DNA of 64,000 nt from Macrostomum lignano (taxonomy: Eukaryota), in contig NIVC01000424.1 of assembly GCA_002269645.1 (NCBI GenBank), positions 361,501 through 425,500 of the forward strand, read 5' to 3'. The notes beneath the pieces are model-generated. The model had not been told where the DNA came from. It made no database searches and saw only the letters and a program-made list of their open reading frames with translations. A program made the translations under genes and the position numbers. How positions within the stretch are numbered: the stretch's first letter is position 1; each line of letters opens with the position of its first letter. This document shows positions 3,484 to 64,000 of the stretch, piece by piece.

Positions 3484-3525
<42 letters not shown>

Positions 3526-3664
3526 GCCTGCCTGTCTGTCTGTATGTATGTGTGCCTGTCTGTCTGCCTGTCTGTCTGTCTGTCTGTCTGCCTGTCTGTC
3601 TGTCTGTCTGTCTGCCTGTCTTTCTGTATGTATGTGTGTCTGTCTGTCTGCCTGTCTGTCTGCC

Positions 3665-3701
<37 letters not shown>

Positions 3702-3788
3702 GCCTGTCTGTCTGTCTGCCTGTCTTTCTGTATGTATGTGTGTCTGTCTGTCTGCCTGTCTGTCTGCCTGTCTGTCAGCCTGCCTGCC

Positions 3789-3835
<47 letters not shown>

Positions 3836-38759: not shown

Positions 38760-41239
38760 CCCGCATCGTCGTCGTGCCCAAGCAGACTCCAGGCGAGATC
38801 AGGATTACGCAGGACTTGAGAGACCTGAACAAGTCGGTCGTTAGAGAGCGGCATCCCATCCCGACATTCGAGGAGGTGACGGGAGACATGGCAGGAGCGC
38901 AGCTATTCTCAGAGCTCGACATCGCGAAGGCATTTTATCAAATCCCAGTCGCCGACGAATGCCGCCATCTTCTGACTTTTTCGACACCACGAGGCCTGCG
39001 GCGGCTGACACGGCTCTGTATGGGACTGTCTACGGCCCAGGAAATTCTCCAGGCGGTCATGTCATCCGTGCTAGCTGGACTCCCGAAAGTAAAATGGATT
39101 CACGACGACATCATCGTGTATGGGCACAGCGTGGCGGAGCACCACAGCAACCTGCAGGCATGTCTGCGACGACTGGCACAGCACGGGCTGACGCTGAATC
39201 CGTTAAAATGCAAGCTCGCCCGTACCGAGGTCACGTTTATGGGGATGCAGCTGTCCAGTGAAGGTGTCAGACCAACCCAGTCCAAGTTGGAAGCCATCCA
39301 CGCATTTGCCGAGCCAAAGACTGCCACAGAGGTGCGCTCGTTCCTAGGCCTGGTCAACTATCTGGCCTCATTCACCCCCGGTCTGGCGGATGTAGCGAGG
39401 CCACTGCGCAATCTGACTAGGAAAGGCGACCCCTGGGCATGGACCGACCTCGAGAAACGAGCTTTTGACGACGTGAAGACCCGGATTGCGACCAGCGGCA
39501 CCCTCGCCTTCTTCAACCACCGCCTAGCGACGCAACTCATCGTCGACGCCGGCCCAGCGGGCCTGGGCGCGATCCTAACGCAGACGCAAGCGGACGGCAC
39601 CAACCGGCCTGTCGCGTACGCCAGCCGGACGCTATCCGATGTTGAGCAGCGCTACTCCCAGACTGAGAAGGAGGCGCTGGCCGTCAAATACGGCTGCTTG
39701 AAATTTCAGTACTATCTGCACGGCGCTCCGACATTTACGGTGGTGACAGACCACAAGCCGCTCATCGCATTGTTCAGCAGTGGCTCAAGGCCTCCCCCGA
39801 GGATCGAAAGAATGGCGCTGCGCATTCAGCACATGAAATTTACAGTCGAATATCAGCCTGGCCCACTTAACCCAGCGGACGTGCTGAGCCAGCAGCCGCT
39901 GCCAACACGAGGAAGAAATGTCGGCGAAGAGCTCGACACCCTCTGCATCGCTGCAATCGTCCAGGCGGCCATACCGAACGCGCTGTCGCTGTCCTCAGTG
40001 CAAGAGAGTTCGCTGCAAGATGCAACAATTCAAGCCGCTATTCGATCGCTGGAGACAGGACGATGGAGCCTCGAGTCGGCGGAGATGCGATCGCTCCACG
40101 CCCTACGGAATGAGCTATCGGCAGCGGACGGCGTGCTCCTGCGGGGCCAGAGAATCGTAGTTCCAATGGCGCTTCGGCGCCTGGTTTTGGACCTGGCACA
40201 CCGCGGTCATCAGTGCCTGCGCAAGACGGTTGACCGTTTGAGCACCAAAGTCTGGTGGCCAAGGGTGCAGGAGCTCTTCGTGCGTGCCTGCCGAGCCTGT
40301 GCAGCTACGTCGCACGCGGCCGACGTGACCGCCGCGCCGCTGAAGCCGACGCCGATCCCGAAAGCTGCATGGCTAACACTAGGGGCAGACCTGCTAGGCC
40401 CCATTCAAGGCAGCATGCTGCTCGTCTGCGTTGACCACTACTCGCGCTTCCCTGAAGTCGAGATCGTCCAGACCACAACGGCCGAAGCGCTGATTCCCAA
40501 GCTGAGGAATTCGTTCGCCAGATTCGGCATCCCACAGGTACTGGTCACCGATAACGGCCCGCCATTCTCCTCGGCCCAGTTCAAAGGCTTTCTGGACAGC
40601 CACGGAATCCGGCAGCGTCTCATCACACCGCTGCATCCGCAGGCCAACGGCATCACTGAGCGCCTGAACCGCTCCATCAATAAGGTTGTACGAGCTGCCA
40701 TTGCCCAGAAGCGCGACTGGAGGGCGGCCCTTGACGAGTGGCTGCTGGCCTACCGTTGCACGCCGCAGCGAACCACCAACCGGGCACCAGCCGAGCTGCT
40801 CTTGGGTCGCGTCCCAAACGATGCCATCCCGTCAATCAGGCCGTCGAGACCGGTGGCCATCGCAGACAGGAGGCTCCGACAGCAGGACGCCAGCAGCAAG
40901 GCAAAGGGCAAGCGCTACACGGACAAGCGACGGCAGGCGAGACCGCATGGGCTCAAAGTCGGCGACACGGTGCTCCGGTGCCGACTAAATCCGCTCAAGG
41001 GCGAGGCTCCATTCGAGTGGACACCCTGGCTGGTCGAGAGTGTCAAGGGCGACTCGATGACCATTCGGCAGGGCGCCAGAGTTTGCAGGCGGCACTGCAC
41101 TGACCTGAAGCGGGTAGCACCAGATGCAGAGCCTGATTTTCCTGTTGGGGAGACCGCACCGCCGATCTTGCAAGCTGCGGGGAGCGAACCCGCGACCCCT
41201 CCAATTGCGCTGCGACCACACCCCGAGAGGCCAAGGTGA
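38663..41239 (+). CDS. pol: Pol: RT, RNase H, integrase (out of frame with gag-PR by one base near 38655)
   Basis: RT ELDIAKAFYQ, WIHDDI; RNase H VDAG, EKEALA, TDHKPL; integrase H..H..C..C, ADLLG, TDNGP, TERLNR; Gypsy domain order RT-RH-IN. Confidence 0.95.
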   Translation: MPIHLAQAVDAELQCLEDQGIIEPVEGPCPWVARIVVVPKQTPGEIRITQDLRDLNKSVVRERHPIPTFEEVTGDMAGAQLFSELDIAKAFYQIPVADECRHLLTFSTPRGLRRLTRLCMGLSTAQEILQAVMSSVLAGLPKVKWIHDDIIVYGHSVAEHHSNLQACLRRLAQHGLTLNPLKCKLARTEVTFMGMQLSSEGVRPTQSKLEAIHAFAEPKTATEVRSFLGLVNYLASFTPGLADVARPLRNLTRKGDPWAWTDLEKRAFDDVKTRIATSGTLAFFNHRLATQLIVDAGPAGLGAILTQTQADGTNRPVAYASRTLSDVEQRYSQTEKEALAVKYGCLKFQYYLHGAPTFTVVTDHKPLIALFSSGSRPPPRIERMALRIQHMKFTVEYQPGPLNPADVLSQQPLPTRGRNVGEELDTLCIAAIVQAAIPNALSLSSVQESSLQDATIQAAIRSLETGRWSLESAEMRSLHALRNELSAADGVLLRGQRIVVPMALRRLVLDLAHRGHQCLRKTVDRLSTKVWWPRVQELFVRACRACAATSHAADVTAAPLKPTPIPKAAWLTLGADLLGPIQGSMLLVCVDHYSRFPEVEIVQTTTAEALIPKLRNSFARFGIPQVLVTDNGPPFSSAQFKGFLDSHGIRQRLITPLHPQANGITERLNRSINKVVRAAIAQKRDWRAALDEWLLAYRCTPQRTTNRAPAELLLGRVPNDAIPSIRPSRPVAIADRRLRQQDASSKAKGKRYTDKRRQARPHGLKVGDTVLRCRLNPLKGEAPFEWTPWLVESVKGDSMTIRQGARVCRRHCTDLKRVAPDAEPDFPVGETAPPILQAAGSEPATPPIALRPHPERPR

Positions 41240-48783: not shown

Positions 48784-49231
48784 TTACCTTCTTAACTTAA
48801 AAATGTTGGCTATTGCGTCAGAAAAGACAACACGATTTGTGCGACCAAAACTTGACAGCCGATCGAAAACCGGCCTGCTCTGAAATTGTTCGCAGATTGA
48901 TAAAACTGACCGACTTGAACTATCTCTGTCCGTGAGACAGTCTGGTCCGAGCTCGTTCACCAGCCACTCGAGTGCTGAGCTGCTCACTTTATTGCATGCA
49001 GCACAGTGCACTGCACTCTTGTTTTGCCTTCCTCTCAGCTTGAAACACTCGACTCCATTCATCTTCTCTTTGATGAACTGCATTGATTCCGCCTTCTGGA
49101 ACTGAGCCGCAATGTGGATGACTGTGTTATTGTCTGCATCTCTGTCCGTGAAACAACCTCGTCCGAGCTCGTTCACCAGCCACTTAAGTGCTGAGCTGCT
49201 CACAGCATTGAAAGCAGCACAGTGCACTGCA
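48784..49231 (-). pseudogene. Ankyrin-repeat coding exon, 3' part, interrupted by the Polinton insertion
   Basis: Two similar units: AVHCAA.N.VSSSAL.WLVNELG..C.TDRD and NNTVIHIAAQ (ankyrin-like). The frame is cut at 49232 by the AGTAGT terminus. Confidence 0.7.
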
Positions 49232-49334
49232 AGTAGTATACGTTTTTTTGACACAAAGCCGATTTCCTTATGGCGAAATACATAGTAAGTACAGGCCCAA
49301 AAAAATGGCAGAGTCTGAAATTTGCCGTGCACGC
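49232..49334. repeat. Left terminal inverted repeat of the Polinton
   Basis: AGTAGTATACGTTTTTTTGACACAAAGCCGATTTCC...GTGCACGC. Confidence 0.93.
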
Positions 49335-49561
49335 AAACTAGCTTTTACGCAATGAATTAACCAATTAGCTGAATCACTTTTACGCAAACACCTGTCTATC
49401 CACCTAAATTCTATCCGCAATGAATGCAGCTAATTACAAGCCCAACCAAAATACACAAAGCTTATTTCGCGTATAACTTAACACATTTAAATTCTTCTTT
49501 TCAAGCAGTATTGTATATTTCAACTAGATCCAAACACAATTTGACGCACAAATTAGCGAGT

Positions 49562-50125
49562 TTACAAATATTGAGGCAGCACTCGAAAAACAAAATTGCG
49601 TAATTTAGCATACAAGTATCGAAACGAACCAGTGCGAATTATATTCCGTTTAAAAACGCTTCGAATAAAACACTCTAGGTTTTCTCTGGTAGTCAACTTA
49701 TGAAAAATATAAAAAATTACCCAAAATCCACAACTTCCACTCTGTGGGTCTTGGATAGCAAAGCGACTATAACACCAATTTTTCGAATTTCCACATTCTT
49801 TTCCTAGCCATTTTGCTATTCTTGGCAATGGTACTAGACCAAGAGAATCAAAATATTCACCAAGTCGTTTGCTACCGCGACCTGCTGGATGACCATAAAC
49901 CCAAACGCATACCCAATGTTTTCCGGGCAGGTTGGAGACGTCAGTATTAACGATAAAAAAATAGTTTTTACCGTCTAAAGGTAAGCGTCTAAGTCCACCA
50001 ACAAAGTTTTGAGGAAAAACACCAAGACATACAACATTTAAAAAATGTGCGCACAATTTCGATACAACATTGCGAAGGAAGCGATCTGTTACACCACGAT
50101 CTAGGATAGAATCAATTACTTCCAT
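49562..50125 (-). CDS. Adenain-like maturation cysteine protease
   Basis: IVNTD...GKHW (His), YFDSLG (Asp), IQ....SCG (Gln/Cys); ATG overlaps the MCP stop. Confidence 0.92.
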   Translation of the reverse strand: MEVIDSILDRGVTDRFLRNVVSKLCAHFLNVVCLGVFPQNFVGGLRRLPLDGKNYFFIVNTDVSNLPGKHWVCVWVYGHPAGRGSKRLGEYFDSLGLVPLPRIAKWLGKECGNSKNWCYSRFAIQDPQSGSCGFWVIFYIFHKLTTRENLECFIRSVFKRNIIRTGSFRYLYAKLRNFVFRVLPQYL

Positions 50126-51438
50126 ACTGTGCCAGGAACAATGTCGCGAAGTTCAGTCAGTTGCAGTTGCTTGTCAAATATACCTCCAAATATGACGTTG
50201 TACACGGTACTAGTTGCAGCATTGAAGCGTAACTCTAGTTTTACATTTCCTTCCTTATACAGTTGCACTCCCCGTCCGACACCAGGTTCACTTCCAAGAC
50301 TGAATGCAAAAATTGAGTAACCATTGGCGTAATCCAGCATATTAAATCCAATATCTCGTCCCTGTAGATAGATTCCAAGCTGTTGTAGCAAAAAATTATA
50401 CTCTGTCACACAATCATCTCCAAAGTTTGTCTGCAGCGGACGCGATGGTACCGAGTCTCCATTCACAAACACACCAATGCTGCTCACATTTGCATGCTCA
50501 AAGTTGAACGGATTTGTGTCCATGCTTCCATTGAATGCCTTGTTGCTTACGATTGCCATCAATAAAAGCCGTGGTACCCCACTAGGAAACAAATTTTCAT
50601 GCGTATGGCTAGACGATCCTCGGGGTATAGTAAACGTACCAAGGCTTAGACTTCGGTGCGGATATAATGCATTGTGACTTTTAAGTCCATGAGCATGTGC
50701 ACTGATAACACTCGGCGAGGGTTGAACAAACCGCAATCGTAGTTCTGCACGCAAAAACTTGATCTCATAGTCTTTTAAAACCGCACCAGCTTCTAATGTT
50801 GACCCGCTCAGGACAAATTTACTTTTTGCCGGTATGAGCTTGATCCGTAGTGGTGTCTTTGATAGTAGATACCGAGGCTGACGAAACAAATCCAAGAATA
50901 ACGGCCCCGATACAGTGCACCGCCTATTGTTAGCAATGAGCGCCTGCCTCTTTGTTCGTCCATCGTTTTCACTTGTTGCATTCATTTTACCAGCTGTATC
51001 CTTGTAAAACCCCCACGGCAGTAAACCAGCCTTCTGAGCTGTATGTCCATATTCCAGTAATGTAAGAAGCATAGCCTTGTATGGATACATAAAACTACCA
51101 CCTTCAACTACAGTATCGCCAATAGTAAATTGAACGTCCTCAAACAATGTTCCAATAACCAAATTATTCAAACAAACAAAATTTTTCGTTGCATCTATAG
51201 GTTCACCTTCACTATCACTAACGCTGAAGCATACCGTGAGCACAGTTTCTTGTAGATCCAAATACAAATCGCCTGCAGGCACAACTTCAAATTCGATAGG
51301 TGATCCTTTTGTAATACCATGTTGCGGTTGAATGTTAGTATATCGATTATCCAAAACACTAAACTGAACAGGACTTTGATCAAATAGCGACAATTCACTT
51401 TTAAGAGCAGCAATATCAGGTCCAAGCAAATGATTCAT
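50116..51438 (-). CDS. Major capsid protein (double jelly-roll, Polinton type)
   Basis: KSELSLF...PIEFEV...YLDLQET, YPYKAML.TLL.Y, NPFNFEH, GNVKLELRF: typical Maverick MCP motifs; ~440 aa. Confidence 0.9.
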   Translation of the reverse strand: MNHLLGPDIAALKSELSLFDQSPVQFSVLDNRYTNIQPQHGITKGSPIEFEVVPAGDLYLDLQETVLTVCFSVSDSEGEPIDATKNFVCLNNLVIGTLFEDVQFTIGDTVVEGGSFMYPYKAMLLTLLEYGHTAQKAGLLPWGFYKDTAGKMNATSENDGRTKRQALIANNRRCTVSGPLFLDLFRQPRYLLSKTPLRIKLIPAKSKFVLSGSTLEAGAVLKDYEIKFLRAELRLRFVQPSPSVISAHAHGLKSHNALYPHRSLSLGTFTIPRGSSSHTHENLFPSGVPRLLLMAIVSNKAFNGSMDTNPFNFEHANVSSIGVFVNGDSVPSRPLQTNFGDDCVTEYNFLLQQLGIYLQGRDIGFNMLDYANGYSIFAFSLGSEPGVGRGVQLYKEGNVKLELRFNAATSTVYNVIFGGIFDKQLQLTELRDIVPGTVWK

Positions 51439-51439
51439 G

Positions 51440-51898
51440 CTACTTTTCAAACAGACTAAAAAGTTTCTTGCTTGCAGTAGCAGTTCGACGTTTTCCTATA
51501 CCACCGGTCTTCTTGCGTTTTCTTTTGTTCACGCGTCCCTTTCCACACTGTCTTGTTCGTCGTTTCTTTTGCCGTTTCTTCTTTCCTAAGCTTATAGCCA
51601 CTCCACTGGTTCTTTTCCTTCGCTTTGGTCTCGAAACTGCAGTTGTATTAAACATCTCTTCGCTCGATTCTGTGTCCAAGTGACGCTTCCGACCCATACC
51701 AATTTTTGCTGTCGCACTTTTCAAATACTCCAGACCACGATCCAAGAAATCTTTCTTTGCGTTGCGTAGTACAGGATACACCAATCTGTCCGCCAAATTT
51801 GACAAAAAACCGTAACCTTCGTAAACAGGAATGCCATATCCACCTCCACCTTCAGCAGATCTATTCGGACCAGAATAAAAAGCAAAAATAGGATCCAT
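51440..51898 (-). CDS. Small Lys/Arg-rich core-like protein
   Basis: GGGG.G.PVY.G.G motif, amphipathic segment, highly basic C-terminus; lies between INT and MCP as in other Mavericks. Confidence 0.65.
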   Translation of the reverse strand: MDPIFAFYSGPNRSAEGGGGYGIPVYEGYGFLSNLADRLVYPVLRNAKKDFLDRGLEYLKSATAKIGMGRKRHLDTESSEEMFNTTAVSRPKRRKRTSGVAISLGKKKRQKKRRTRQCGKGRVNKRKRKKTGGIGKRRTATASKKLFSLFEK

Positions 51899-51939
51899 TT
51901 CAACAGTCTTCTCTTCGTCATGCAATCCCAATTCATGTG

Positions 51940-53100
51940 TTACTTATACACTTTAGAAAATAGTTTAGCAGTCTTTGCGTCAAGATCATTTTCGTTTAAC
52001 CACTGACTTCTTGAGATTGGCATACCTTTCCATTTTACTAGATACAGACGACTTCCATTTTTCGCTCGATCAGTTTCAATAACTTTTTCAATTTCATTAG
52101 GTGTTTCATCTGTCTCGTTTACCAACATTAGTTCCGCTTGGTTAAACCTTCCTTTCAGCACTTCAAATCCATCTTCAGGGTCCACTAATTCGTACATTGG
52201 CGGGTCTGTCAAGTGTACACGATGAATGCGATATTTTGAATTACTCCAAGTCGTAGTGTATCCTTTTTCAAATGTTCCTCGACGTCGTGTAATTCTAACC
52301 CAATCACCAACTTTAAATTTATTCTCATTCTTTTTAGTGTACGACTTCGCAAACATTTTGTCCCACAAAATTCCTTGTAAATGCGGGTCTGTCTCTACCC
52401 GTTTTGGTGTTTCTCCACTCAAGGATCGATGAGGACTAGAGTTGAAATTATCTTCCAATTGCGGTAAAATGTCAAACCATCGAGGTAAATTTTTTGCTCG
52501 AAAGTATCGTAATAGACGTTCCTTTAACGAGCGGATAAATCGTTCAGCCATGCTTGCCTTGTAATTGCTTTGGCTAACAAAAAATCGAACTCCTTCCTGT
52601 TTCAGCATTTGACGTGTAGCTCTTCCGAGAAACTCCATACCAGCATCACCTTGTAAATAAACAGGCTTAAAACCACTTCGAAAAATCTCTAGTAATACTT
52701 GACTAACTTCTGAAGGCTTCTTTGTACGCAATGGTCTTAGTCGTACAACTCTAGTAAAACAGTCGATAAGAACAAGTATGTAACGATAACCTCGATTTTC
52801 CGTCTTGTATTGAGGTAAATCTGCCAAATCGATTTGAAACTGAAACTTTGCAACTGGTGGCACACTAATTTTTGGAGTTGGAAAGTTTCGTCGTGTTTTT
52901 CGAAATAAATGATGCTCATTTGTTGATCGCACCCAATTATCAACTTCGCGCTTTGCAACTTTGTTCGTAATCTGTGGAAACTTTTTACGTACTTCACGAA
53001 CAAGTATAGTCTTGTTACCACTAAATGAAGTAGGCCTGTTCAAGTTAAAAAAAGCATCCGTCAAAAATTCTTCAATTTCCTTACGCACTCGCTTCATCAT
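51940..53100 (-). CDS. Retroviral-like (c-)integrase with C-terminal chromodomain
   Basis: DDE triad QIDLAD, GDAGMEF, AERFIR; chromodomain EIEKVI...YLVKWKG.P.S.SQW.....L. Confidence 0.95.
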   Translation of the reverse strand: MMKRVRKEIEEFLTDAFFNLNRPTSFSGNKTILVREVRKKFPQITNKVAKREVDNWVRSTNEHHLFRKTRRNFPTPKISVPPVAKFQFQIDLADLPQYKTENRGYRYILVLIDCFTRVVRLRPLRTKKPSEVSQVLLEIFRSGFKPVYLQGDAGMEFLGRATRQMLKQEGVRFFVSQSNYKASMAERFIRSLKERLLRYFRAKNLPRWFDILPQLEDNFNSSPHRSLSGETPKRVETDPHLQGILWDKMFAKSYTKKNENKFKVGDWVRITRRRGTFEKGYTTTWSNSKYRIHRVHLTDPPMYELVDPEDGFEVLKGRFNQAELMLVNETDETPNEIEKVIETDRAKNGSRLYLVKWKGMPISRSQWLNENDLDAKTAKLFSKVYK

Positions 53101-53269
53101 CAGTTAGATTGATGCTAGTCGTTTGACAGTTGCAACAAAAGAACGAAGCCTCGATCGAATCTCCGTCAGTATCCTCGTTGTGCTCCTTTCCCAGAAACGG
53201 CACACATTCAGATTTTATGCAAAAAAACTCACAGAGACGAATCAAAAGTTTTTGGAAGATAGATGACAT
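53081..53269 (-). CDS. Small Cys-rich ORF overlapping the integrase start
   Basis: ATG-initiated 62 aa with CCNC; packed like the neighbouring viral genes. Confidence 0.45.
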   Translation of the reverse strand: MSSIFQKLLIRLCEFFCIKSECVPFLGKEHNEDTDGDSIEASFFCCNCQTTSINLTDDEASA

Positions 53270-53381
53270 GGTTTGTCTTATTAAACTATATATTTTTCAT
53301 AAACAAAAAATTAACCTTTTTAAAAAGCTTATAGTGCTCGAATCAATTTTGTTAAAACGTAATCTGTAATTTTAAAACAAC

Positions 53382-54071
53382 TTAATTCAGTGTTTGATAA
53401 TTTTCAAACAGACTAAGATCCTCCTTTGCAACAGTTTTTGGAGCAGACATTAGCTCGTTTCGTACATGACGCCCGATTTGGTTTGCTGCGATTCCACGTT
53501 TTCGAAGAAAGTCTAAAAATGTTTTTAGTCCACTAGGCGGTTGAGTCTCGTGTCGCTTAAGCGGTCTGTCTCGAACAACATATTCCATGAGATCTTGTAT
53601 CTCGGCATCAGTCAAATTAGCCAGCATTGGTTCTGCATTCTTGTCCATGTCCGAAAATAGGTTTTGAGCGAGAGCTTCGAAACGTGGTAAAAAAACTTTA
53701 GGAATTTCCCTTGATTCGCTGGCATATGAACTTCTTACAGTAGTCCCTTTGCGAACAAGTGACAGATTGTCCTCGTCTCCAGTGCGATAGACTTTGCGCA
53801 ATTTTAAAAGTTTGTCTTCCAATCTGCTTCGTTTCAATTGAGCTGTGTAATTTGGCTCCTTTTCCATTTCCTTGTCCAAGTTATCCATTTGGTCTCTCAT
53901 TTCCACCATATTTTTTGCCAGAGCATCTTGCGGTGCGTCTAAAACTTCAGTTTTTCGAGGTGTCTCAGCAGTTGGTGACGATCCTTGCTCTGCACCTTGA
54001 CATGCAGATTGATACACAGATTCAGGTACTAGATACATTCGTTGAAAACTACTACTCTCGTTAGTTCGCAT
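53382..54071 (-). CDS. Uncharacterised Polinton protein (229 aa)
   Basis: N-terminal RMYLVPE motif seen in Maverick accessory ORFs; intact ATG-stop ORF. Confidence 0.7.
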   Translation of the reverse strand: MRTNESSSFQRMYLVPESVYQSACQGAEQGSSPTAETPRKTEVLDAPQDALAKNMVEMRDQMDNLDKEMEKEPNYTAQLKRSRLEDKLLKLRKVYRTGDEDNLSLVRKGTTVRSSYASESREIPKVFLPRFEALAQNLFSDMDKNAEPMLANLTDAEIQDLMEYVVRDRPLKRHETQPPSGLKTFLDFLRKRGIAANQIGRHVRNELMSAPKTVAKEDLSLFENYQTLN

Positions 54072-54081
54072 TATATTCCTA

Positions 54082-54510
54082 CTACTTTCGTTGAATTGAT
54101 CGTATTAAATTCGCTGCTCCCGCGGCGGTACCAACTACTCCAGACGTTATCCCAAGCGCAGTGCTTATAGCAGGTAGAGCGGCAATAATTGGAGCCAAAA
54201 AAGGTAAAAATCCTCCGTGTTGGACAAGTATTTTCCTTTTTGCAGTAATTGGAGTCTTCTGTTCCAAAAGCTGGCGTATATATCTGCGATGCTTCTCAAG
54301 TCGTCTTTTGTTACAGTTACTAATTTTAATACGTCCACTAATAATATTAAACAGAAAGTCTACTAGACATCGTATCTCCGACTCTGAAAGTGTTTGTAAA
54401 AAACTTTTTCTCTGCTTTGGATGCTTTAGCCGATAAACAATTTGTAGTAAAAAAGCACACTGACACAATGAGCGAGCATTTTGTTTTCCTTTTTCTGTTA
54501 GTTCGCTCAT
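54082..54510 (-). CDS. Conserved Polinton small protein with QHGGFL amphipathic/hydrophobic tail
   Basis: EIRCL..FLFNI..G.I.IS...KRRL.KHR..IR.L...KRKILVQHGGFLPFLAPII is a recurrent Maverick ORF type. Confidence 0.8.
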   Translation of the reverse strand: MSELTEKGKQNARSLCQCAFLLQIVYRLKHPKQRKSFLQTLSESEIRCLVDFLFNIISGRIKISNCNKRRLEKHRRYIRQLLEQKTPITAKRKILVQHGGFLPFLAPIIAALPAISTALGITSGVVGTAAGAANLIRSIQRK

Positions 54511-54566
54511 TCTTACAAAACAAATTCACAAAATTTTCTATTACACAATTAATCTTTGCTTATAAA

Positions 54567-55556
54567 TTAGTCCGACCTATGTTTAAAATGCAGTACGACA
54601 ACAACGTGTGCTCCCGGATCAAAATTAAACGGTTTTCCGCGCTGGTCCGATAGTCGAATCGAAATCTCGTGAATTTGTTGTCGATTTGTTTTCAAGTAGT
54701 AGGGTGTTTGCAATGCACTGCTATCGCGTATAAGTTCTCCGTTTTTCTTTTGTTGGAGTTCCACAACTCGAAGCAACGGTACTGATGTACTTCCCACTGC
54801 TTGATACTCGATTATATCTGTGTAACAGTACATGTAAACCGTTTTACTAGGCATCGGAGAAGGTAGCACAGCATCCAAGTAGGTTTTGTTAATGCGCCAA
54901 ACACGATTTCTCAACCAATATTGGTGTACTTTGATGTACACTTCTCCTTCCGTTTTTCGAAGATAGTCTCCATGCGAAACAAGTCGTATAGCTTCACCAG
55001 GCGATAGAACACAATAAAAAACATAATAGTTCTCAGGTACTAGCGCTAGAGTATTGTCGAGACTTTTTATCAAATCCAAGTATGAACCATCCGGTGGTTG
55101 TACACTACCAGCGGCAGGTTTTGATAATTTTTCCGAGACAAGTCCAGAAAGTTTCTTCCAAGAGTCAAATTTGAAAGCGTCCATAAATGTAACTGGTAGT
55201 TCTAATCCAATAGTTTTTTCGCCTGAATTTCGTAAAAGCCAGGCAAATTTTTCATCTGTACCAGACGGTTGCCAGGAAACGTAAGCATCCAAGTCTGCCT
55301 CTGCCCAAACACGACCCCAATAGTTTTTCTTTAATCGTATTATTGAGTCAATGTCCGCAAAATATGGAACTTCAAATCGACGCTCACGATGAGCATTTGG
55401 CGTCGTAATTGCTCCATGGCACAGTAATTCAACTAGTGCAACCTCGAAGAATCCGTTCAATAAATTTATTGGTTCAGTTAGTCGCACTCGAAATTCATTA
55501 GGCGAGTTGGTTTCGTAACTGATATCGTTTGACGGCAAAAAAACGTAAAAACTCAT
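54567..55556 (-). CDS. Minor capsid protein (penton, single jelly-roll)
   Basis: FYVFLPSN...N....FRVRL..PI.L...EVALVE and Y.YTDIIEYQ.VG....PLLRVV...I.EISIRL.D..G.P..F motifs. Confidence 0.85.
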   Translation of the reverse strand: MSFYVFLPSNDISYETNSPNEFRVRLTEPINLLNGFFEVALVELLCHGAITTPNAHRERRFEVPYFADIDSIIRLKKNYWGRVWAEADLDAYVSWQPSGTDEKFAWLLRNSGEKTIGLELPVTFMDAFKFDSWKKLSGLVSEKLSKPAAGSVQPPDGSYLDLIKSLDNTLALVPENYYVFYCVLSPGEAIRLVSHGDYLRKTEGEVYIKVHQYWLRNRVWRINKTYLDAVLPSPMPSKTVYMYCYTDIIEYQAVGSTSVPLLRVVELQQKKNGELIRDSSALQTPYYLKTNRQQIHEISIRLSDQRGKPFNFDPGAHVVVVLHFKHRSD

Positions 55557-55613
55557 TTTGAAATAAAACACAAACTAATATTGACAACAGTTTATAATTT
55601 GCTTATAATAATA

Positions 55614-56303
55614 TTACACAAACTTTGCATCACATTCACGAGTATAGACAACTTGTTCATCACCAGAAAATATTCCTGTTCTCAATCGTAAAAAATCTGG
55701 TGTCACTTGCCGCAGGTCAATGAATAAATATGAAAAAGGTTTGTTATTTGTTGCGTCTTCATACACATTCACTAGAAACCTACTATTACGCGGATACATT
55801 TGTCGACCGAGATGTTCAACTGTGGTTCGATCGCGCACACTACGAGTTAGACAAATATAACTAGCTGATAAACTTCGCATGCGTGCTTCTGGATCAGACT
55901 TGTTAAAAAGACCTTGACAAAGGTACAGACAAGTCAAAGGGATATGATGCGCATGCTTTGTAAACATACTAGTAAATTCTGGCAACTTAGCAATCTCGCT
56001 TTGCAAGTCGTCAACAACAACCAAATCGTGTGGTAAAAAACGATTAATCATCTGTGGTGTGAATTCGGGTACAAAAACAATAGGGTCAAGACCGCTTTTT
56101 TGCCAGCATGTTCTAATTCGTTGTTGATCGTCTGGTTTCAAACTTGATCCATGGCACCAAACAAGACGGCACGGTTTTTTATCAAATAATTCTTTTCGTT
56201 CAGTCAACAAACGCAACGTCCATTCAGTTTTACCCGAGTTTGAAGGTCCAGCAATAATAAATGTAGAATCGTGAGCTAGTTGCATATTGTATGGCTGCTG
56301 CAT
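55614..56303 (-). CDS. FtsK/HerA (A32-like) genome-packaging ATPase
   Basis: Walker A GPSNSGKT, Walker B VVVDDL, F.K..HH and LCQGLF motifs. Confidence 0.93.
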   Translation of the reverse strand: MQQPYNMQLAHDSTFIIAGPSNSGKTEWTLRLLTERKELFDKKPCRLVWCHGSSLKPDDQQRIRTCWQKSGLDPIVFVPEFTPQMINRFLPHDLVVVDDLQSEIAKLPEFTSMFTKHAHHIPLTCLYLCQGLFNKSDPEARMRSLSASYICLTRSVRDRTTVEHLGRQMYPRNSRFLVNVYEDATNNKPFSYLFIDLRQVTPDFLRLRTGIFSGDEQVVYTRECDAKFV

Positions 56304-56305
56304 TT

Positions 56306-56749
56306 TCAAGCACCAAAGCGTTGCTTAACTTGCATAACCTTGGTAACCAACTTCGCAGCTAGTTTTTCTTTCCAACCAGTAGACGGATCGTGGGCAATCT
56401 CTCGTGCACCAGATTCTAATAGCTTATCAGCTTTTAACCTCTCTTGCACGTCAGAATTTTTATCATAGGCCACGTCGTGAAGCATGCACAAATTGTCAAG
56501 CCGATTAATTCCTCGTTGTCCTTTTGCTAGCCTAGCTTGCAGTTGCGTACCTGGACCACAAAACTGATATCCGCCGGGTAAATGTGCTTCAAATGGTAAA
56601 TGATTAATTAACCAATTTACGACACCATAACCTTGTTGCTTTTTATTAATCTTTCTAATAGATTTCTTCTTTTTACGAATGCTCTTCTTTTTCTTTTTAA
56701 AACCTCGATCTTTCGCTGGAGACATTTTTACAACATATATTTTAGGCAT
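56306..56749 (-). CDS. Parvovirus-type phospholipase A2 domain protein with Lys-rich N-terminus
   Basis: Ca-binding loop HLPGGYQFCGPG and catalytic LDNLCMLHDVAY, then R..AD..L. Confidence 0.88.
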   Translation of the reverse strand: MPKIYVVKMSPAKDRGFKKKKKSIRKKKKSIRKINKKQQGYGVVNWLINHLPFEAHLPGGYQFCGPGTQLQARLAKGQRGINRLDNLCMLHDVAYDKNSDVQERLKADKLLESGAREIAHDPSTGWKEKLAAKLVTKVMQVKQRFGA

Positions 56750-56840
56750 AAATTTTTAAAATTGCTTATAGTATTTACAAAGCTCTCGCATAGTGCACCA
56801 ATCACCAAAGAAAAAAATCAGTTTATTATTATTATTATAC

Positions 56841-57323
56841 TTATTGGCCAGTGCTGCCAAAGCCGCCAAAGCCGCGCCGCTTGGTCGGCGGCTCAATCAT
56901 CCGAATCGAATTGTCTGCTTCAGTCACATAGACTGAAGCAAGCACGGCCTGCTCCAGAACCAGTTGTGCAATACTGAGCCCGGCATAGTACTCAAAGTCT
57001 TCCGGACTGTAATTAAACAAGACTATACAGATTTCACCAGTATAGTCGGGGTCGATTACGCCACCGCCAACAAATAAGCTGTGCAGAGCCATGCTGGAAC
57101 GTCCCGCTATCCTGCCATAGGTACCAGGCGGTAAGCGAATTTTGAGTCCGGTTCGCACACTCCGGGACTCGTAGGCCGGAATGGTACCATCGACGCCAGC
57201 GCAAAGATCATACCCGATCGACCCGACAGTTTTTCGGGTCGGAATCGTTGCCGAATCGTATAGACGTTCAACTAAAAGCTTACGATCAGTTAGTTGTTGT
57301 TGCTGCTGCTGCTCGGGATTCAT
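56841..57323 (-). CDS. dut: Trimeric dUTPase
   Basis: All five motifs: GYDL, RSS, GVIDPDYTGEI, IAQL, RGFGGFGSTG; N-terminal poly-Q. Confidence 0.93.
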   Translation of the reverse strand: MNPEQQQQQQLTDRKLLVERLYDSATIPTRKTVGSIGYDLCAGVDGTIPAYESRSVRTGLKIRLPPGTYGRIAGRSSMALHSLFVGGGVIDPDYTGEICIVLFNYSPEDFEYYAGLSIAQLVLEQAVLASVYVTEADNSIRMIEPPTKRRGFGGFGSTGQ

Positions 57324-57599
57324 GTCGATTCTTGTAGCTGAAAGTTTAAAAAAAAGTTTTTTTTCTTGAAACATGAACGATAGCACTACATTTACGTCTA
57401 CTACAAACACAAGCTTAGTCTTGAGAATCTAACTATAAAAAATATACTTTTTCAAATAATTAAACACAAAAAAGTGCTAAAATTATAATTTAAACGAATG
57501 CCGGTATCATTTATTTATTGTAAATAATGATCAATGAAAAAATTAATGATGGGTTACAGTCTTCTATAGCATGCTATTACTTTGTACAACAAAAGAGAT

Positions 57600-57946
57600 C
57601 AGAGCATATTGTTAATTAATTAGCCAAGTGCCAGTGTCCAAAGGGTAGCGAATTAATTGAACTTGTCCAGGATCGCTTCGTATCGAAGAAGCTTAGTGCA
57701 AGTTTTCTTTGTTGCATCAAAAAAAACTTTCTGTTTTCGAGAACGAATGGACTGCATGCGCGAAAACACAAGTTGTCGCTTGTGTAAGACTCTTAAATAG
57801 TCTTGATGCTTTAAACTGCTCTGTGCGGCTTTAGAAGCAGTACTGCTCCAGCTTTGCGACCGATTGAGACTGGAACTTTAAACGATTGCTGCTTAACCAG
57901 ACCGGACCGGACTGGACCGGACCGGACTGGACCGGACTCCCCGCGC

Positions 57947-57978
<32 letters not shown>

Positions 57979-58716
57979 ACCACCACCACCGCCGCCACCA
58001 CCACCACCACCACCGCCGCCACCACCACCACTGCCGCCGCCCGCCCCCACACCACCGTGGGACGTATTTGTTGACAGTGTGCTTGCATGGCTTTTGCGAT
58101 AAACGCAGAGCATCAAGTCTAGCTGCTCGATTGCTCTATATTGCCAATTACTACCTCGAGATTGAAAATTGTCAATTTTTATTAACAACTGATTAATAAC
58201 GCGTGCGAACCAGTCATTGTAGGCCTCGGGAGATAACAGCATGTCACTGTTTGCAATCGTCTCATCAAATGATATTGTCGCAATGTTGGTATTAAAATAG
58301 ACCGAAATGATCTCTTCGCTGCTCGAGCCATCGTTGTCGTCTGCTGCTGTTTTCGGTCGAAATAGTGTCACTTTCAAGTGAAAGCAGACTCTTATTAATA
58401 AACTGGGTGAGCCAATTTTTTCCAATATTTTAAATATTGGTTCTCTTAAAGACGCAATCAACTCGCCAGGAAGTAACTCGCCAGAGCTGTTGCCTTGTTG
58501 TTCAAGAGTGGGAGTAAATTCGACAAAATTTACCCGACCACGATGAGCTGACTCGCGCAAAGCGATGGACCACCCATCTGGTGGGTTTTCGATCAGGTTT
58601 TGCAGCGATCCGGTCAGTAATCGTTGCGGTGAAAAACAAGCACCATGCGAGTGAGCATGCAGCTCGGCTTGATTACTGAACTTTTTTCTGCAGATTTGGC
58701 ATTGTGCACGCGGCAT
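57600..58716 (-). pseudogene. Relic of the pPolB N-terminal region (C2H2 finger ORF 58716-57811 plus decayed tail); no polymerase core
   Basis: CQIC...H...H finger; IDNFQSRGSNW...I..L.L; SFKVP.SI...AV and, in the same frame after two TAA stops, DNLCF. These are motifs of the region that precedes pPolB in Mavericks. Confidence 0.6.
57890..58055. repeat. (GCC/ACC)n triplet and ACCGG repeats encoding poly-Gly and GPVRS
   Basis: Direct. Confidence 0.93.
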
Positions 58717-58937
58717 TGTGTGCACCTAGCTCGACAACGAGCGTATCGAGCATAATATTAATAGATGATCCGGTTTGTCATTTGCGGCTGTAAGAAAAAT
58801 GATGATTTGGTTAGTTATAGGTATAGCTGACACGTTTACTATTAGAGAAAACAATTGGTAAATAAAAAAAAAGACAAAATGTTTGTAAAAGAATGCATCG
58901 CAACTGCGATTTGACAGCAATTGTTTACTTGTTAAGT

Positions 58938-59495
58938 TTAGTTATTAACAGAGATTAAAAAATCCTTGACATGGTTAAGAATATTATTCAATTCATGAGT
59001 GTTTTGAACGCCCATAATAACAAACTTTTTCGAAAAAAATATGTTACAAAAAAGCCTTGGTTTTGATGCTGATCTAACAGAAACTGCTTGTGGGAAATTT
59101 TCTGCATCGTATCCAACCAGATAATTCGAATAGTAGCCTGCATATCTTTTTAGACTAGAGAAACCGAATTTTGGCCAAAGATGACCAATAAAGCCGACAT
59201 AGGTACTGCTCTGAATTTTTACTGAATCAAAATCTACACAATTAATAGTGTCGTTGATAAATCGTAAAACTGAGACTATCTGAGAATTTGATTTACAGCC
59301 ATATATAGTTAGTTTTCCTGCTGGATAAAGTTGGATTTTAGCATTTGAATAAATTGTCTTTAGCATTGTTGGTCGGCTTAGGAATAGTTTGCAAAACCGG
59401 TTTCTGGTCTGTAGCTTCTGTTTGGTCTGCTTTAAATCAAATTTTTCAAACGGGTGCAGCTTCAGACTCGCAGTAACTATTAATAGGACAAGTCG
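58938..59495 (-). CDS. TATA-binding-protein-like protein (185-aa open frame after a splice acceptor; first in-frame ATG 59366)
   Basis: Two TBP-like half-repeats: LIVTASL...FDLK...IQLYPAGKLTIYGCKS and VKIQS...YDAENFP...KPRLFCNIFFSKKFVIMG. Confidence 0.75.
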   Translation of the reverse strand, partial: RLVLLIVTASLKLHPFEKFDLKQTKQKLQTRNRFCKLFLSRPTMLKTIYSNAKIQLYPAGKLTIYGCKSNSQIVSVLRFINDTINCVDFDSVKIQSSTYVGFIGHLWPKFGFSSLKRYAGYYSNYLVGYDAENFPQAVSVRSASKPRLFCNIFFSKKFVIMGVQNTHELNNILNHVKDFLISVNN

Positions 59496-59705
59496 CTAAA
59501 ACGGAAAATAAATAATAAGAAAAGTTAAACATGACTATACTATCGTAAATTCTAATATTAAATTACAAAACCTGGTTAGCGTACAAGGAGTAGCAAAAAA
59601 TGTTTTGAGCTTTTCCCTAAAAAATAATATTTCCCTAGCCAAAAATTTGATAAATATAGTGGAATAAGTTAGTTAAAACTTGGATAAAATTAGTCAAAAA
59701 TTTTG

Positions 59706-60904
59706 TTACTCATCATCAGAGCTGCTGTACGAGTCGTCCGATGAAGACACGCTAGCTGTAGTAGCGTCCGCAGCAGCACGCTTTAAAAATGCTGTCTCCT
59801 TGGACGCTACCCTGGTTCCAGAGGCAGGTGTACTCACCAAGATCTTTGCTGGTGGAGCCTCCACCCAGTCTGTGCCATCTGCACCAGCTTCGGCAGAATT
59901 GTTTTGCTGTTTTGCACCGCTGCGTTTTCGAACTTGCTTTTTAGGCGGCGGTTCAATAGAGGCTGGCGCTGCATTCGATGTAGTCGACTTCTTCGATACG
60001 GTGGTGGTAGACCGACGCTTTGCAGGTGACTTGGCAGGTGTCACCTGGCTTGAATTCTGCAGGCTTTGTTCATTTGCTTCTTCTTGCTCACAGGTAGATG
60101 TTGGGGACGGACTCCTGCTTCTAATTGCTGACTTGGTCGCGGGTAGGTGTGCAAGCACTCCCTTGAACATGTCGAGGCGCTGCAACATGTTGTCGGAAGA
60201 TTCTATGAGTGTCAGAGAGCGCACAGCGAATGTAATGCGCCAGACGAGGCAGCCTTTTGGACAATACAAGCTCGTTGCTTGCACTGTCATTTGGTAGGTA
60301 CCGCTGACACCTTTGAAATCGGAAATGGACACCTCCTTCCCGTGTGGATGATCGTTGCTGATCCTGATTGTGGCACAAGGGTAAGCAGGCTTTATAGCCA
60401 GCCATTGTTGAGGCACAAACTCGAGGACGTCGTTAGCATGCTGATGAGCTGGTTTTGTTAGTCGTGCCAAGGGTCGAGCATCTTGAATCTCGTTCAACTT
60501 GACCGATAGACCTTTTTCGACTTGACTGCAAAACATTATATAAATTATGAATATAGTTTCCTAAAATTAATTGTATAAATTTAATATGGTGCTCACCGGA
60601 GAGAGTGGAAGAGTTCCTTATCGCAGCTGTCTGGATGAAATTGGACACTTACTGCGTCGCGAGAGTCGTGTCTGCAAGACGGATGATCGAGCTCTGGCCT
60701 TTCTGCGATTCCACGAAAAAGCTCCATTGGAGCCTTGGTTTGCAATATAATTGGGTACCATTTTGTACACTCGATTGATGGTTTCCACGCAATAGATCGA
60801 AACTGGCAGGACGAACCAGTCGTGGTTGTAGACTGCTCTCCAACGTAAAAAATCGGACTCGAGTCGGAGCGTACAATTGACTCCGTCTTGATGCAAGCTG
60901 CCAT
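59706..60904 (-). CDS. Spliced gene (exons 60904-60597, 60525-59706; 375 aa), putative OB-fold ssDNA-binding protein with acidic tail
   Basis: A 71-bp GTGAG...TTTTGCAG intron joins two ORFs in phase 2. PIILQT..., ELF..LRQVE, and the strand pattern TVQATSLYC...WRITFAVRSL resemble viral T7-gp2.5-like SSBs; C-terminus SSSDDE. Confidence 0.6.
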
Positions 60905-60982
60905 GTCTTACAAGCAATTGAATATAGTATTTCTTTTGCTGTAATGATTGAGCTCATGAAAAATTGACCATTTCGGGTCTTG

Positions 60983-60990
60983 TATTTATA
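60983..60990 (-). promoter_or_regulatory. Candidate TATA box (TATAAATA) upstream of the SSB-like gene
   Basis: Consensus match ~80 nt upstream of ATG 60904. Confidence 0.4.
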
Positions 60991-61589
60991 GCAAGCATTG
61001 CATGCTGTTTGTGAACTAGTAAACAAATTTAATTGTTGCGTGCTGATTAAGACATTGTTGCGTGCCAAAGGTGGCATAAGTTTCTAGGGTGGGTTGCATG
61101 ATTAGGTCTAATTTTACGCAAATGTAGGTTGATATTTTATAAAATAAAATTAATGAATCTTAGGCACACTAGTTATAAATTTGCAAGAGTAACACGATGG
61201 CAAGCGTTTAATAAGAAGACTGCTGGTTGCTGCTTCATTAGATTGGTTTTGTTCTCAAGTAGAATGTAATTAAAATATTTTGCGACTTGAAAAATTAGCA
61301 ATCTTGGATTTTAGAGTAAAAATAAGCTGCACGCGGTGCTATGAAATTAATTTATTGAAAGTTTTGCTTGCATGTTGGAATTTTTTAGCTCGCACGGTGA
61401 CAAGAGATTGCTTGAGTAACCTATATATAGAGTGTTACTTTTCAAACAGAAAAAGGTATAGTTGTAACTCAGCTTTTGCAGTCCTATATTGAGCAGAAGC
61501 TATATAGAGTTACACTATCATGCTGCGACGCGCAGCTTGTTGGGACTATAATGACTGCCGCTGCTATAACCGCATGCAGTCAGTGCAGT

Positions 61590-62335
61590 TGACACACAAA
61601 TGCTGTTTGGACTAAGCTAAATTACTGTGTTGAGACAGTTAAGCTGGACCACGGCTAAATCACTATTGATACGGTTAATTGCTACTAGACCCATGGCTAA
61701 ATCACTGTACGTTGAGACGGTTAAGCTGGACCACGACTAAATCGCTGTACGTTGAGACGGTGGTTAAGCTGGACCATGGTTATAAAACTGGACGGGTGGT
61801 TAAGCTGGACGACTACAGCTAAAATTACTGTTGAGTCAGTTATGCTAGACCACAGCAGCCAAATCACAGTTGAGGTAAAGCTGACCATAGCTAATTCTCA
61901 CTGTTGAGACGGGTGCTGCTGCTTGGCTCACAGCTAAATAACTGGACAGTTAAGCTAATCGGACTACAGCTAAATCCCTGTTGAGACAGTTGCCTGGACC
62001 ACAGCTAAAATCACTGTTGAGGCAGTTAAGTCTGGACAACAGCTAAAATTACTGTTGAGACAGTTAAGCCTTGACTATAGCTAAATCATCGTTGAGGTAG
62101 TTAAGCCTGGACTATAGCTAAATCACTGTTGATGCAGTTTTAAGCTAGACCACAGCTAAATCATACTGTGAGGCAAAAAAGCCGGACCACAGCTAAAAAC
62201 TGTTGAGGCAAAAGCTGGACCACAGCTAAATCATACTGTTGAGGCAAAAGCTGGACCACAGCTAAATCATACTGTTGAGGCAAAAGCTGGACCACAGCTA
62301 AATCATACTGTTGAGGCAAAAGCCAGACCATGGCT
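61590..62335. repeat. ~36-bp tandem array (GCTGGACCACAGCTAAATCATACTGTTGAGGCAAAA) inside the Polinton
   Basis: About 20 degenerate copies, most homogeneous at 62200-62330. Confidence 0.88.
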
Positions 62336-62587
62336 AAAGAAACGTATGAAAAAAAATTATTTGCATGGATTAATAATTTTTGTTTAATGATGACTGTACA
62401 AGATATTGACTTTATATTGAATTAAATAATTTCAATGAATGGCGAATAAAATTGAAAGAATTTTTTAGAATAATGAATTTATAGAGATTATATTATTGAT
62501 TACAGACTTGTTTGATATATACTAAAAGAGCAATTACTTGGACACATTGCTGGCAAAATTTTATGAAGAGTTAGAAAAAATGTCTTT

Positions 62588-63448
62588 TTAAGATAGGTCC
62601 CAATATTCAAATACTTGAGTTGTATTACAGGTCTTTGCTAATTCTACTTGGTAGAAGCCTGTGCTCATTTGAGAGACTTTTACAGACTTGATGTCCTTCT
62701 GTACAATAATTGGCGAGTTTAGCAGCGGTTGAACTTGGGTAGAAATAGCAATTGATGATGATGGTGTTTCAGTTGCTGTCGTTGGTTTGGTACTTGTAGG
62801 CTTACTGCAAGTTTGCTTTGTTGGGTCATTGTAGCTGGTTGGTGATGGTGGTGGTGGTGCATACTGCAGTTGGTCAGTTGGTCGTGGGTTCGATTGCTGC
62901 CTAATTGACTGAATAACATCAGTTCTTGTGTAAATGCGATCTAGCTCAGTTGTCTGTCTCTCGACATGAATCGAGGTTACTCTGGCGAGAGATGTAGAAT
63001 ATGATGCTCTTGCAGCAGAATTGGATGTGGTGGTGTCGTGGCAAATGCGTTTGCACTGATCTGGAGGTGGCCGCGTGAAGAAACCATTCTTGAATGCTAT
63101 AATAATGGATAAGATGAGGGAAATTTGGTATAGGTGCATGTATACAATGTATATAGAAACTGAACTAGCAGAGAATCAGTCTAAACAGAAACCGAACTAG
63201 CAGACAATCAATCTAGAAATTCTGAACTAGCAGAGTATTAGTCTAAACAGAAACCGAACTAGCAGAAATCAATCTAGAGACTGAACAAACAGAGGATCGG
63301 TCTAAACAGAAACCGAACTAACAATCAATCTAGAAACTAAACTATAGCGAACAGTCAATCTAAAAAAGAAAACTGAACTAGAGTAGGTGATTATCTTACC
63401 TTGTTTAACATAGCGCTCGGCCAATTCCTGCTGACGTGATCGCTTCAT
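62588..63448 (-). CDS. Probable spliced gene (exons 63448-63400, 63096-62588; 185 aa), Thr/Pro-rich, unknown function
   Basis: ATG...CAA G|GTAAGA donor and TTCCCTCATCTTATCCATTATTATAG| acceptor are both phase 1, giving MKRSRQQELAERYVKQAFKNGFFTRPPP. Confidence 0.55.
63155..63385. repeat. ~50-bp degenerate repeat (AAACAGAAACCGAACTAGCAGA...ATCAATCTAGA) within the predicted intron
   Basis: About 4 copies. Confidence 0.75.
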
Positions 63449-63903
63449 TTCACTTAAGATGTAAGTATAGTTGAACAAGTAGTATAATGTAAACTTGGTT
63501 TAAGTTATTTAATATTTTCTGTGTCAGTGTGTTCGTATATATATATATATAAAGAAGAAGCATGTTGACGCAGTTGTTGACATAGTATCTGTAAACCATC
63601 TGCTCAAGTTGGTGCAAAAATTCTATAGGCACTCAAGAATAGATCATTTACTATCTTTCTTCAAAAGGGTGATAATATTCACAAGTTTTCAATATTTCAA
63701 AAACACTTGAAATGTGTGAATAGCTTTGGAGTAAATTTGTCTTGAATGGAATCCTTTGAAGTGTGTTTGTGTCACCATTGCTAGAATCGGTTACTTGTAT
63801 TTTGGACAGGTGGATATGCAATTCGTCTGAATAATCACGTTGCGTAAAAGATATTTAGCGTGCACTTGGAATTTCAGACTGCGTGCACATGGAATTTCAG
63901 ACT

Positions 63904-64000
63904 GCGTGCACATGAAATTTCGGACTCTGCCATTTTTTTGGGCCTGTACTTACTATGTATTTCGCCATAAGGAAATCGGCTTTGTGTCAAAAAAACGTAT
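63904..64000. repeat. Right terminal inverted repeat of the Polinton (last 6 nt outside window)
   Basis: Reverse complement of 49238-49334; differs only in the innermost ~20 nt. Confidence 0.93.

Follow-up and report, generated by a model that had tools for sequence, protein, structure and literature searches.

Maverick/Polinton elements of animals (adintoviruses) are the closest described systems to the locus considered here. Those of vertebrates are reported as intronless (PMC8097293) and those of nematodes as carrying introns only in cargo genes, with an intronless core (10.1101/2022.07.12.499685). Polinton-like proviruses of dinoflagellates contain spliceosomal-type introners (PMC11957031), and one legend to an adintovirus figure names a TBP-like gene (PMC8502044). 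The flatworm Macrostomum lignano has a 35-nt spliced leader, 30% of its genes are reported to be trans-spliced and GT[G/A]AG is its top donor motif (PMC8629364); in Schistosoma, the leader AUG is known as initiator for host genes (Cheng 2006, as cited in PMC9851317). Late transcription of beta- and gammaherpesviruses uses a TBP mimic, BcRF1 or ORF24, on a TATT box (PMC4893493, PMC12529657). We analysed a window of 64,000 nt of M. lignano DNA (assembly GCA_002269645.1, contig NIVC01000424.1, positions 361,501 to 425,500 of the forward strand; coordinates below count from its first letter), in which a 14.8-kb Maverick/Polinton with AGTAGT inverted termini extends from 49232 to the contig end. 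An earlier note had described spliceosomal introns at 59495..63448, a region which is the early arm of this element, in a copy without most of its polymerase. We regard as probable an account in which two introns are spliced, the host leader is placed on the RNAs of pPolB and dUTPase, the early genes likely form one RNA polymerase II (Pol II) operon, and a TBP-like product of this operon switches on the structural genes through the motif TATAAG.

Introns 1 and 2, of which the first splits an SSB-like gene and the second gene 1, are spliced in cis.

60526..60596, minus strand: intron 1, 71 nt, GTGAGC...TTGCAG, 21% GC, phase 2; joint seen in contigs of runs of guessed RNA type, conserved in six groups
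63097..63399, minus strand: intron 2, 303 nt, GTAAGA...TTATAG, phase 1; contains a 32/62-nt tandem repeat
63400..63448, minus strand: gene 1 exon 1, 49 nt, with ATG; TATATATA lies 95-103 nt upstream
62588..63096, minus strand: gene 1 exon 2, Thr/Pro-rich, without family

All coordinates of the earlier note were correct on checking the sequence, and its two in-phase introns, 60596-60526 and 63399-63097 (the latter behind a 49-nt ATG exon), were borne out. Splicing out intron 1 led to a frame of 375 amino acids (aa) and splicing out intron 2 to one of 185 aa. The exact CT..AC joints 60525/60597 were present in contigs of three of four public sequencing runs (three studies), and 63096/63400 in contigs of all four runs (four studies), with one contig per run for each joint and 23-30 nt on the shorter side. 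The runs were guessed to be of RNA type, with no record as RNA, and some of their contigs also span introns and repeats; throughout, the evidence consists of assembled contigs, in which rare forms drop out. Genomic copies without the intron were absent among the candidates scored (37 of 37 for intron 1, 40 of 43 for intron 2). A UniRef gene model (P0001) carries the identical intron-1 junction and corresponds to the 375-aa product; its UniRef name, 'VASt domain', was rejected as it has no Pfam support. Three other joints, of 184, 1102 and 153 nt, lack canonical ends and were attributed to variation in the DNA.

Sister elements, with a TBP 40-46% identical to that of the window, were assigned by eye rather than by a tree to groups B-F, group A being the window's own. 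Intron 1 was found at the same position and in phase 2 in all six groups, with both sites in 17 of 27 loci and a length of 71-101 nt; the remaining loci are degraded or rearranged, or the place is uncovered. Five sites checked were identical in 30/30 close copies, a weak test at 95-100% identity. Gene 1, for which family searches gave no result, was recognized by DNA alignments only in group A among the loci examined, its acceptor being kept in six of six aligned copies and its donor in the four in which exon 1 was found. Degraded copies of about 80% identity are rearranged, with the start of SSB-TBP-pPolB outside the terminal repeat (L031/L032, L035, L038), and the intron-1 donor is deleted in such copies (seen in L035).

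The gene that is completed by removal of intron 1 comprises the following features.

60597..60904, minus strand: SSB-like gene exon 1
59706..60525, minus strand: SSB-like gene exon 2, with a disordered region and an acidic tail at its end
60983..60990, minus strand: canonical TATA box TATAAATA, 86 nt before the ATG of the SSB-like gene

The TATA box lies at the same place in all six sister loci compared. Intron 1 falls at residue 103, inside the SSB-like fold, so that its removal completes a predicted single-stranded DNA (ssDNA)-binding fold. Structural comparison of the model (residues 1-211) with CP312R of African swine fever virus (ASFV), a solved ssDNA-binding protein, led to Z 10.5 and a root-mean-square deviation of 4.8 over 179 aligned residues (Foldseek E 6.6e-4), well above the Z of 3.0 for unrelated rows and indicating an SSB fold of the oligonucleotide-binding (OB) type as in nucleocytoplasmic large DNA viruses (NCLDV); the modest confidence of the model (mean predicted local distance difference test, pLDDT, 54) weighs against this assignment. 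Phage Enc34 SSB gave Z 5.6, and many giant-virus proteins also match, with DUF5871, DUF2738 and Pox_I3 as leads. From this model, the 375-aa protein is predicted to bind ssDNA.

Downstream of this gene, the host spliced leader is joined in one run at two acceptors, before pPolB and before dUTPase.

58788..58800, minus strand: spliced-leader acceptor of pPolB; 23-nt leader loose end in run X7
57338..57355, minus strand: spliced-leader acceptor of dUTPase; 22-nt leader loose end in run X7

Two contigs of this run stop exactly at these AG acceptors and continue into identical 22-23 foreign bases, which are the 3' end of the 35-nt M. lignano leader as given in PMC8629364. Genomic copies of dUTPase or pPolB starting at the acceptor were not found (40 of 42 candidates scored for each), and retro-copied templates behind the leader junctions were rejected, as none appeared in the genomic copies scored. 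In the genome, 58 matches to the leader were detected, and of six examined, two are spliced-leader RNA genes with a GTAAG donor and four run on into other sequence. Such non-donor copies (L044-L047) are likely retro-copied trans-spliced RNAs; three have the same upstream flank.

Leader addition is supported by corresponding acceptors in the sister groups. In six of six groups, the ATG of dUTPase follows a pyrimidine-rich acceptor at a distance of 4-22 nt, and the deoxynucleoside kinase (dNK) gene of groups B-F has one directly before it in four of five. For pPolB, TTCCAG in phase 0 precedes the zinc finger by 9-27 nt in all 13 matched loci of groups B, C, D and F, group E being outside the comparison. 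No in-frame Met lies upstream in eight of these 13 loci (groups B, F), the first following at least 108 codons later; in these two groups, pPolB thus contributes no start codon, and initiation likely relies on the AUG of the leader. The early-arm genes share one strand and are spaced by less than 1 kb, which fits the operon definition of PMC8629364. Several points nevertheless speak against a general role of the leader. It was seen in one of seven runs, of guessed RNA type, with one contig per site; an in-frame Met is present upstream of the zinc finger in the other five pPolB loci (39 codons in C, 18 in D); and pPolB of the window copy starts with an ATG that lies 71 nt past the acceptor and in another frame than the leader AUG, the latter opening a short upstream frame in the window's group. 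Furthermore, separate promoters and outrons for the individual genes could take the place of a single polycistronic precursor.

Between the SSB-like gene and pPolB lies the TBP-like gene.

58938..59495, minus strand: TBP-like domain, two-repeat saddle from the acceptor onward
59496..59511, minus strand: phase-0 AG acceptor of the TBP-like exon with its polypyrimidine tract
59832..59837, minus strand: internal GTGAGT, phase 0, kept as GTRAGY; candidate alternative donor, use in RNA not seen

As the earlier note had stated, the TBP-like frame begins at acceptor 59496 before its first ATG: the AG at 59497-59496 is followed by the frame in phase 0, with the first Met at codon 44. The model (pLDDT 94.6) is a two-repeat saddle that matched TBPs in Foldseek with E 1e-9 and TM 0.73-0.77, and its first strand begins at residue 2 after the acceptor. 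A saddle that starts at codon 2 with a first Met at codon 44 means that the N-terminus must come by splicing. The phase-0 acceptor was found in 23 of 27 loci and in all six groups (the pattern required AG, and the four misses are counted), and an in-frame Met upstream occurs in group E only. The conservation of splice sites, which the earlier note had suggested as a check, thus extends from intron 1 to this acceptor. In two relatives from different samples, this position reads L-Q-R/K, as would be compatible with a CAG acceptor.

As to the partner of this acceptor, we lean towards the leader, the terminal AUG of which would start a 186-aa TBP. The most serious rival, possible yet less probable, is purely cis: donor 59837 would be joined to the TBP acceptor to give a 517-aa SSB-TBP fusion, the unspliced form being the 375-aa SSB with its acidic tail, and the fusion would couple late transcription to replicating DNA. 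In its favour, GTRAGY stands in phase 0 at K-x-L|V-S in 24 of 27 loci and six groups, 259-622 nt before the acceptor, in loci found via the peptide motif alone, compared with 15 of 62 background Val-Ser pairs, or 15 of 27 when Ser is AGY; GT[G/A]AG is also the top donor motif of the host (PMC8629364). This excess argues for cis-splicing over the leader as the only partner, although conservation of the peptide motif may fix AGY by descent. Against a purely cis origin, the saddle is complete from the acceptor onward and the two neighbouring acceptors receive the leader. In contigs of seven runs, the joint 59495/59838 was not found, nor was a leader at 59496 among the loose ends listed; this decides nothing because contigs drop rare forms. 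A weak search for a longer TBP-bearing protein found none, long open frames around sister TBPs turned out to be downstream read-through and not upstream fusion, and the acceptor motif was dropped as a discriminator since it does not separate cis from trans here. The leader and the cis donor are possibly both used.

The proposed target of the TBP-like protein is the motif TATAAG in the structural arm.

56764..56770, minus strand: TATAAGC, 45 nt before PLA2
55601..55607, minus strand: TATAAGC, 51 nt before the putative minor capsid gene
54558..54564, minus strand: TATAAGC, 54 nt before the mu/pX-like core gene
54163..54169, minus strand: TATAAGC inside the core gene, 98 nt before the 229-aa open reading frame (ORF)
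53327..53333, minus strand: TATAAGC, 233 nt before the integrase
51943..51948, minus strand: TATAAG(T), 50 nt before the 152-aa ORF
51590..51596, minus strand: TATAAGC inside the 152-aa ORF, 158 nt before the putative major capsid gene
50254..50259, minus strand: TATAAG(G), 134 nt before the protease and within the capsid ORF, perhaps as a coding effect

TATAAG occurs eight times in sense and once in antisense orientation within 49562-56840 and not at all within 56841-63900; shuffled sequences had a mean of 1.8 sense matches, and none of 200 reached eight. The sites lie 45-233 nt before eight of nine structural ORFs, ATPase following PLA2 without a motif. Structural arms of four other groups contain 5-7 sense matches each (reached by 0 or 1 of 200 shuffles). 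When five arms are pooled, TATAAGC ranks first among the 7-mers, with 25 occurrences against 1.8 expected. In two arms added later, eight and seven sense matches were detected at corresponding places, and some 160 nt ahead of the capsid gene the motif is retained although the sequence there is coding. From the fold and its co-occurrence with the motif, TATAAG is likely a late promoter to which the TBP-like protein would bind. The following should be held against this assignment. The motif was first spotted by eye in the window, the counts are non-independent because the arms are related, dUTPase of groups C and E has a TATAAG ahead of it as well, and the motif is absent before PLA2 in groups B and C. 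In addition, of the four positions of intercalating Phe in TBP, the second repeat retains F134 and F153, but the first has Tyr (Y57) at one position and no clear Phe at the other, near which P42 is invariant.

Two other explanations of the motif have to be considered. TATAAG could be a variant TATA box read by host TBP, in which case the split between early and structural genes would reflect gene history and leader addition would be a passive use of acceptors at hand. This would agree with the TATA box that groups D and E have ahead of the SSB-like gene, TATATAAG, and with the 30% of host genes that are trans-spliced (PMC8629364); it is unlikely, as the exact G(C) is kept even within coding sequence before the capsid gene and the phase-0, Met-less acceptors before pPolB require a leader or another exon. 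More doubtful still is that the polymerase of a helper large DNA virus of baculovirus or nudivirus type reads TATAAG and the TBP-like protein has another role. TATAAG does include the baculovirus late motif ATAAG, a further point against a promoter of the element's own, and the pattern [A/T/G]TAAG (PMC13483298); virophage promoters are thought to match those of their helpers, and endogenous mavirus-like elements are reported to bear motifs implicating giant-virus partners (PMC8547959). On the other side, the motif resembles a TATA box, and most of its sites are 43-60 nt upstream of the ATG, a distance that would suit a Pol II TATA box and a short 5' leader; a conserved TBP fold is also encoded by the element itself.

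In the mechanism that we propose, host Pol II would start at the TATA box near 60990, and one transcript would yield the mRNAs for the SSB-like and TBP-like proteins, dNK in the sister groups, pPolB and dUTPase. Cis-splicing would make the SSB-like mRNA, and leader addition would release the genes that follow, in the manner of operons of the host. The TBP-like protein would then bring host Pol II to TATAAG of the structural genes and the integrase. Tentatively, we go one step further and suggest that the start codons of both the polymerase and the TBP-like factor have been given over to the host leader and that a single TBP mimic is the switch on TATAAG. If so, replication and late transcription of the element would depend on flatworm trans-splicing, within a self-contained early/late programme in an animal Polinton. 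The two-tier expression envisaged in the earlier note is retained, now with the host leader and early-arm acceptors on one side and strand-specific TATAAG before the structural genes on the other; trans-splicing, TATAAG and the loss of most of the polymerase in the window copy go beyond that note.

The same note had taken the structural genes to be intronless and overlapping. The first part holds in that they are collinear with the sister copies, the longest insertion being 10 aa in the main alignments and 21 aa in one secondary, frameshifted high-scoring segment pair; a canonical joint was not found in the structural arm in contigs of four runs, which drop rare forms. The second part applies to some genes only: PLA2/ATPase, the integrase, and the 152-aa ORF/major capsid/protease abut or overlap, whereas the other structural ORFs are 10-280 nt apart. 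A structural-arm joint of 3300 nt had non-canonical CA..TA ends and was set aside as a DNA variant; this skip (50259/53560), in contigs of three of four runs, is probably another deletion derivative. Confinement of introns to the non-structural arm is valid for the window copy but not across the clade, as PLA2 of group D contains a 78-nt in-phase GT-AG intron (L054:4066-4143) that is identical in seven copies. A 70-83-nt phase-0 intron is present in pPolB of groups B and C (L049:2777-2848, L089-L091), its donor being mutated in two of five copies examined; both introns were identified from DNA. An adenovirus-like model with introns strictly in non-structural genes would agree with the two spliced introns in the early arm of the window copy and its collinear structural ORFs, yet is highly improbable in view of the group D PLA2 intron, one motif per structural gene and trans-splicing.

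The remaining features of the element are as follows.

49232..49335, unstranded: terminal inverted repeat with AGTAGT terminus; 98-nt arms, 96% complementary
63903..64000, unstranded: second terminal inverted repeat; the contig stops about 6 nt before the terminus
61616..62338, unstranded: array of 36-40-nt tandem repeats, upstream of the early unit
57811..58716, minus strand: pPolB N-terminal remnant with zinc finger and Gly run; some 3.1 kb are missing at 57817
56841..57323, minus strand: dUTPase, Pfam PF00692, E 2e-29
49562..56725, minus strand: structural arm, PLA2 to protease; Pfam PLA2, Adeno_PX, rve, Chromo

Inverted termini beginning AG(TAGT) are those of a Maverick. Among four copies with both ends read, three showed a 6-bp target-site duplication (one of them inside a tandem repeat), one additional copy had no match, and the flanking sequence varies from copy to copy. 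The order on the minus strand is gene 1, tandem repeats, the two-exon gene, the TBP-like ORF, the zinc-finger ORF (start of pPolB) and dUTPase, followed by PLA2, ATPase, putative minor capsid, mu/pX-like core, 229-aa ORF, rve integrase-chromodomain, 152-aa ORF, putative major capsid and protease. The integrase is retroviral-like (rve E 4.5e-08, with a chromodomain by Pfam), and the protease matched ASFV S273R weakly (E 0.008). The putative ATPase has a Walker A-like GPSNSGKT and no library match, and the capsid ORFs had no match in Pfam, PHROGs or NCBIfam, nor the 440-aa ORF in PDB sequences or phages. The capsid and ATPase labels are our assumption, taken from gene order and characteristic motifs and, for the capsid, also from ORF size and 65-80% conservation. 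Related loci were not found in viral and metagenome collections.

The zinc-finger ORF is the start of the protein-primed polymerase, because a copy of 95% identity is longer by 3.1 kb at 57817 and continues into PF03175 (E 6e-20). The short pPolB spacing, with the N-terminal part only, is common to 30 of 33 close copies; the structural ORFs are nevertheless open. The window copy is a recently spread, polymerase-deleted Maverick. This non-autonomous subfamily outnumbers its parent, though assembly duplication may inflate the counts. The window copy is also without 1.6 kb of the left arm at 62348; the absent segment (L039:5650-7250) contains opposite-strand ORF pieces and a hydrophobic stretch, so that full elements are not wholly one-stranded, and group F has a similar small membrane-protein-like ORF (L080:3648-4058). 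A Gly-coding low-complexity repeat of pPolB (57896-58057) is present in all groups compared and often frameshifted between copies. The dNK gene of the sister groups lies between TBP and pPolB (L048, L051, L053, L055, L058) but has been lost from group A, that of the window; in group F it shares one frame with TBP (460 aa, Pfam TBP and dNK) and may contain an in-frame intron. Adjoining the element end, an ankyrin-repeat frame (48784-49231) suggests that the insertion may break a host gene. Outside the element, long open frames were observed on the plus strand at 37158-41239 (533 and 942 aa) and, in strongly skewed sequence, at 3195-5947 (873 and 555 aa).

Compared with known systems, the element shares with animal Mavericks/Polintons (adintoviruses) the AGTAGT termini, the 6-bp duplications, pPolB, the rve integrase and PLA2, together with a putative protease, ATPase and capsid-like block. 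It differs from those of vertebrates and nematodes in an old intron in a conserved replication gene, in core genes that take a spliced leader, and in introns gained in pPolB and PLA2 of sister groups. Dinoflagellate introners are mostly recent mobile insertions, whereas the position of intron 1 is kept at ~25-40% protein identity. The SSB-like protein resembles NCLDV and phage SSBs (ASFV CP312R, iridovirus p31K, Enc34 SSB) in the predicted fold of residues 1-213 and in the acidic tail, but at 7-14% identity, with the gene split by a spliceosomal intron and DNA binding predicted. No report of trans-spliced Mavericks or of TATAAG in Polintons was found in the open-access literature, supplements and Repbase being outside the search. 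ORF callers miss such genes, the SSB and TBP being whole only when splicing is allowed. Adenovirus late genes are expressed from one major late promoter as one heavily spliced transcript; the likeness to adenoviruses drawn in the earlier note is poor here, as nearly each structural gene has a separate TATAAG. The leader and the [T/C]TNCAG acceptors are the same as in flatworm trans-splicing and operons (PMC8629364), which are known for host genes, whereas in the present case a virus-like mobile element, with its polymerase among the genes concerned, receives the leader. Core genes are handled by the host trans-splicing machinery, and dependence on a leader ending in AUG would tie the element to flatworm hosts. 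With the late system of herpesviruses it has in common an encoded TBP fold and a variant TATA before structural genes, and in both a viral RNA polymerase gene was not found; it differs in a bare 185-aa TBP core, in TATAAG and in that other members of the complex were not identified. The TBP-like protein and TATAAG likely work in the manner of herpesvirus TBP mimics, an analogy that claims neither membership nor homology. The layout resembles TBP-mimic late transcription of herpesviruses combined with a flatworm operon rather than an adenovirus, and for Maverick gene expression and its early/late cycle this family offers a candidate late promoter and factor in a laboratory flatworm.

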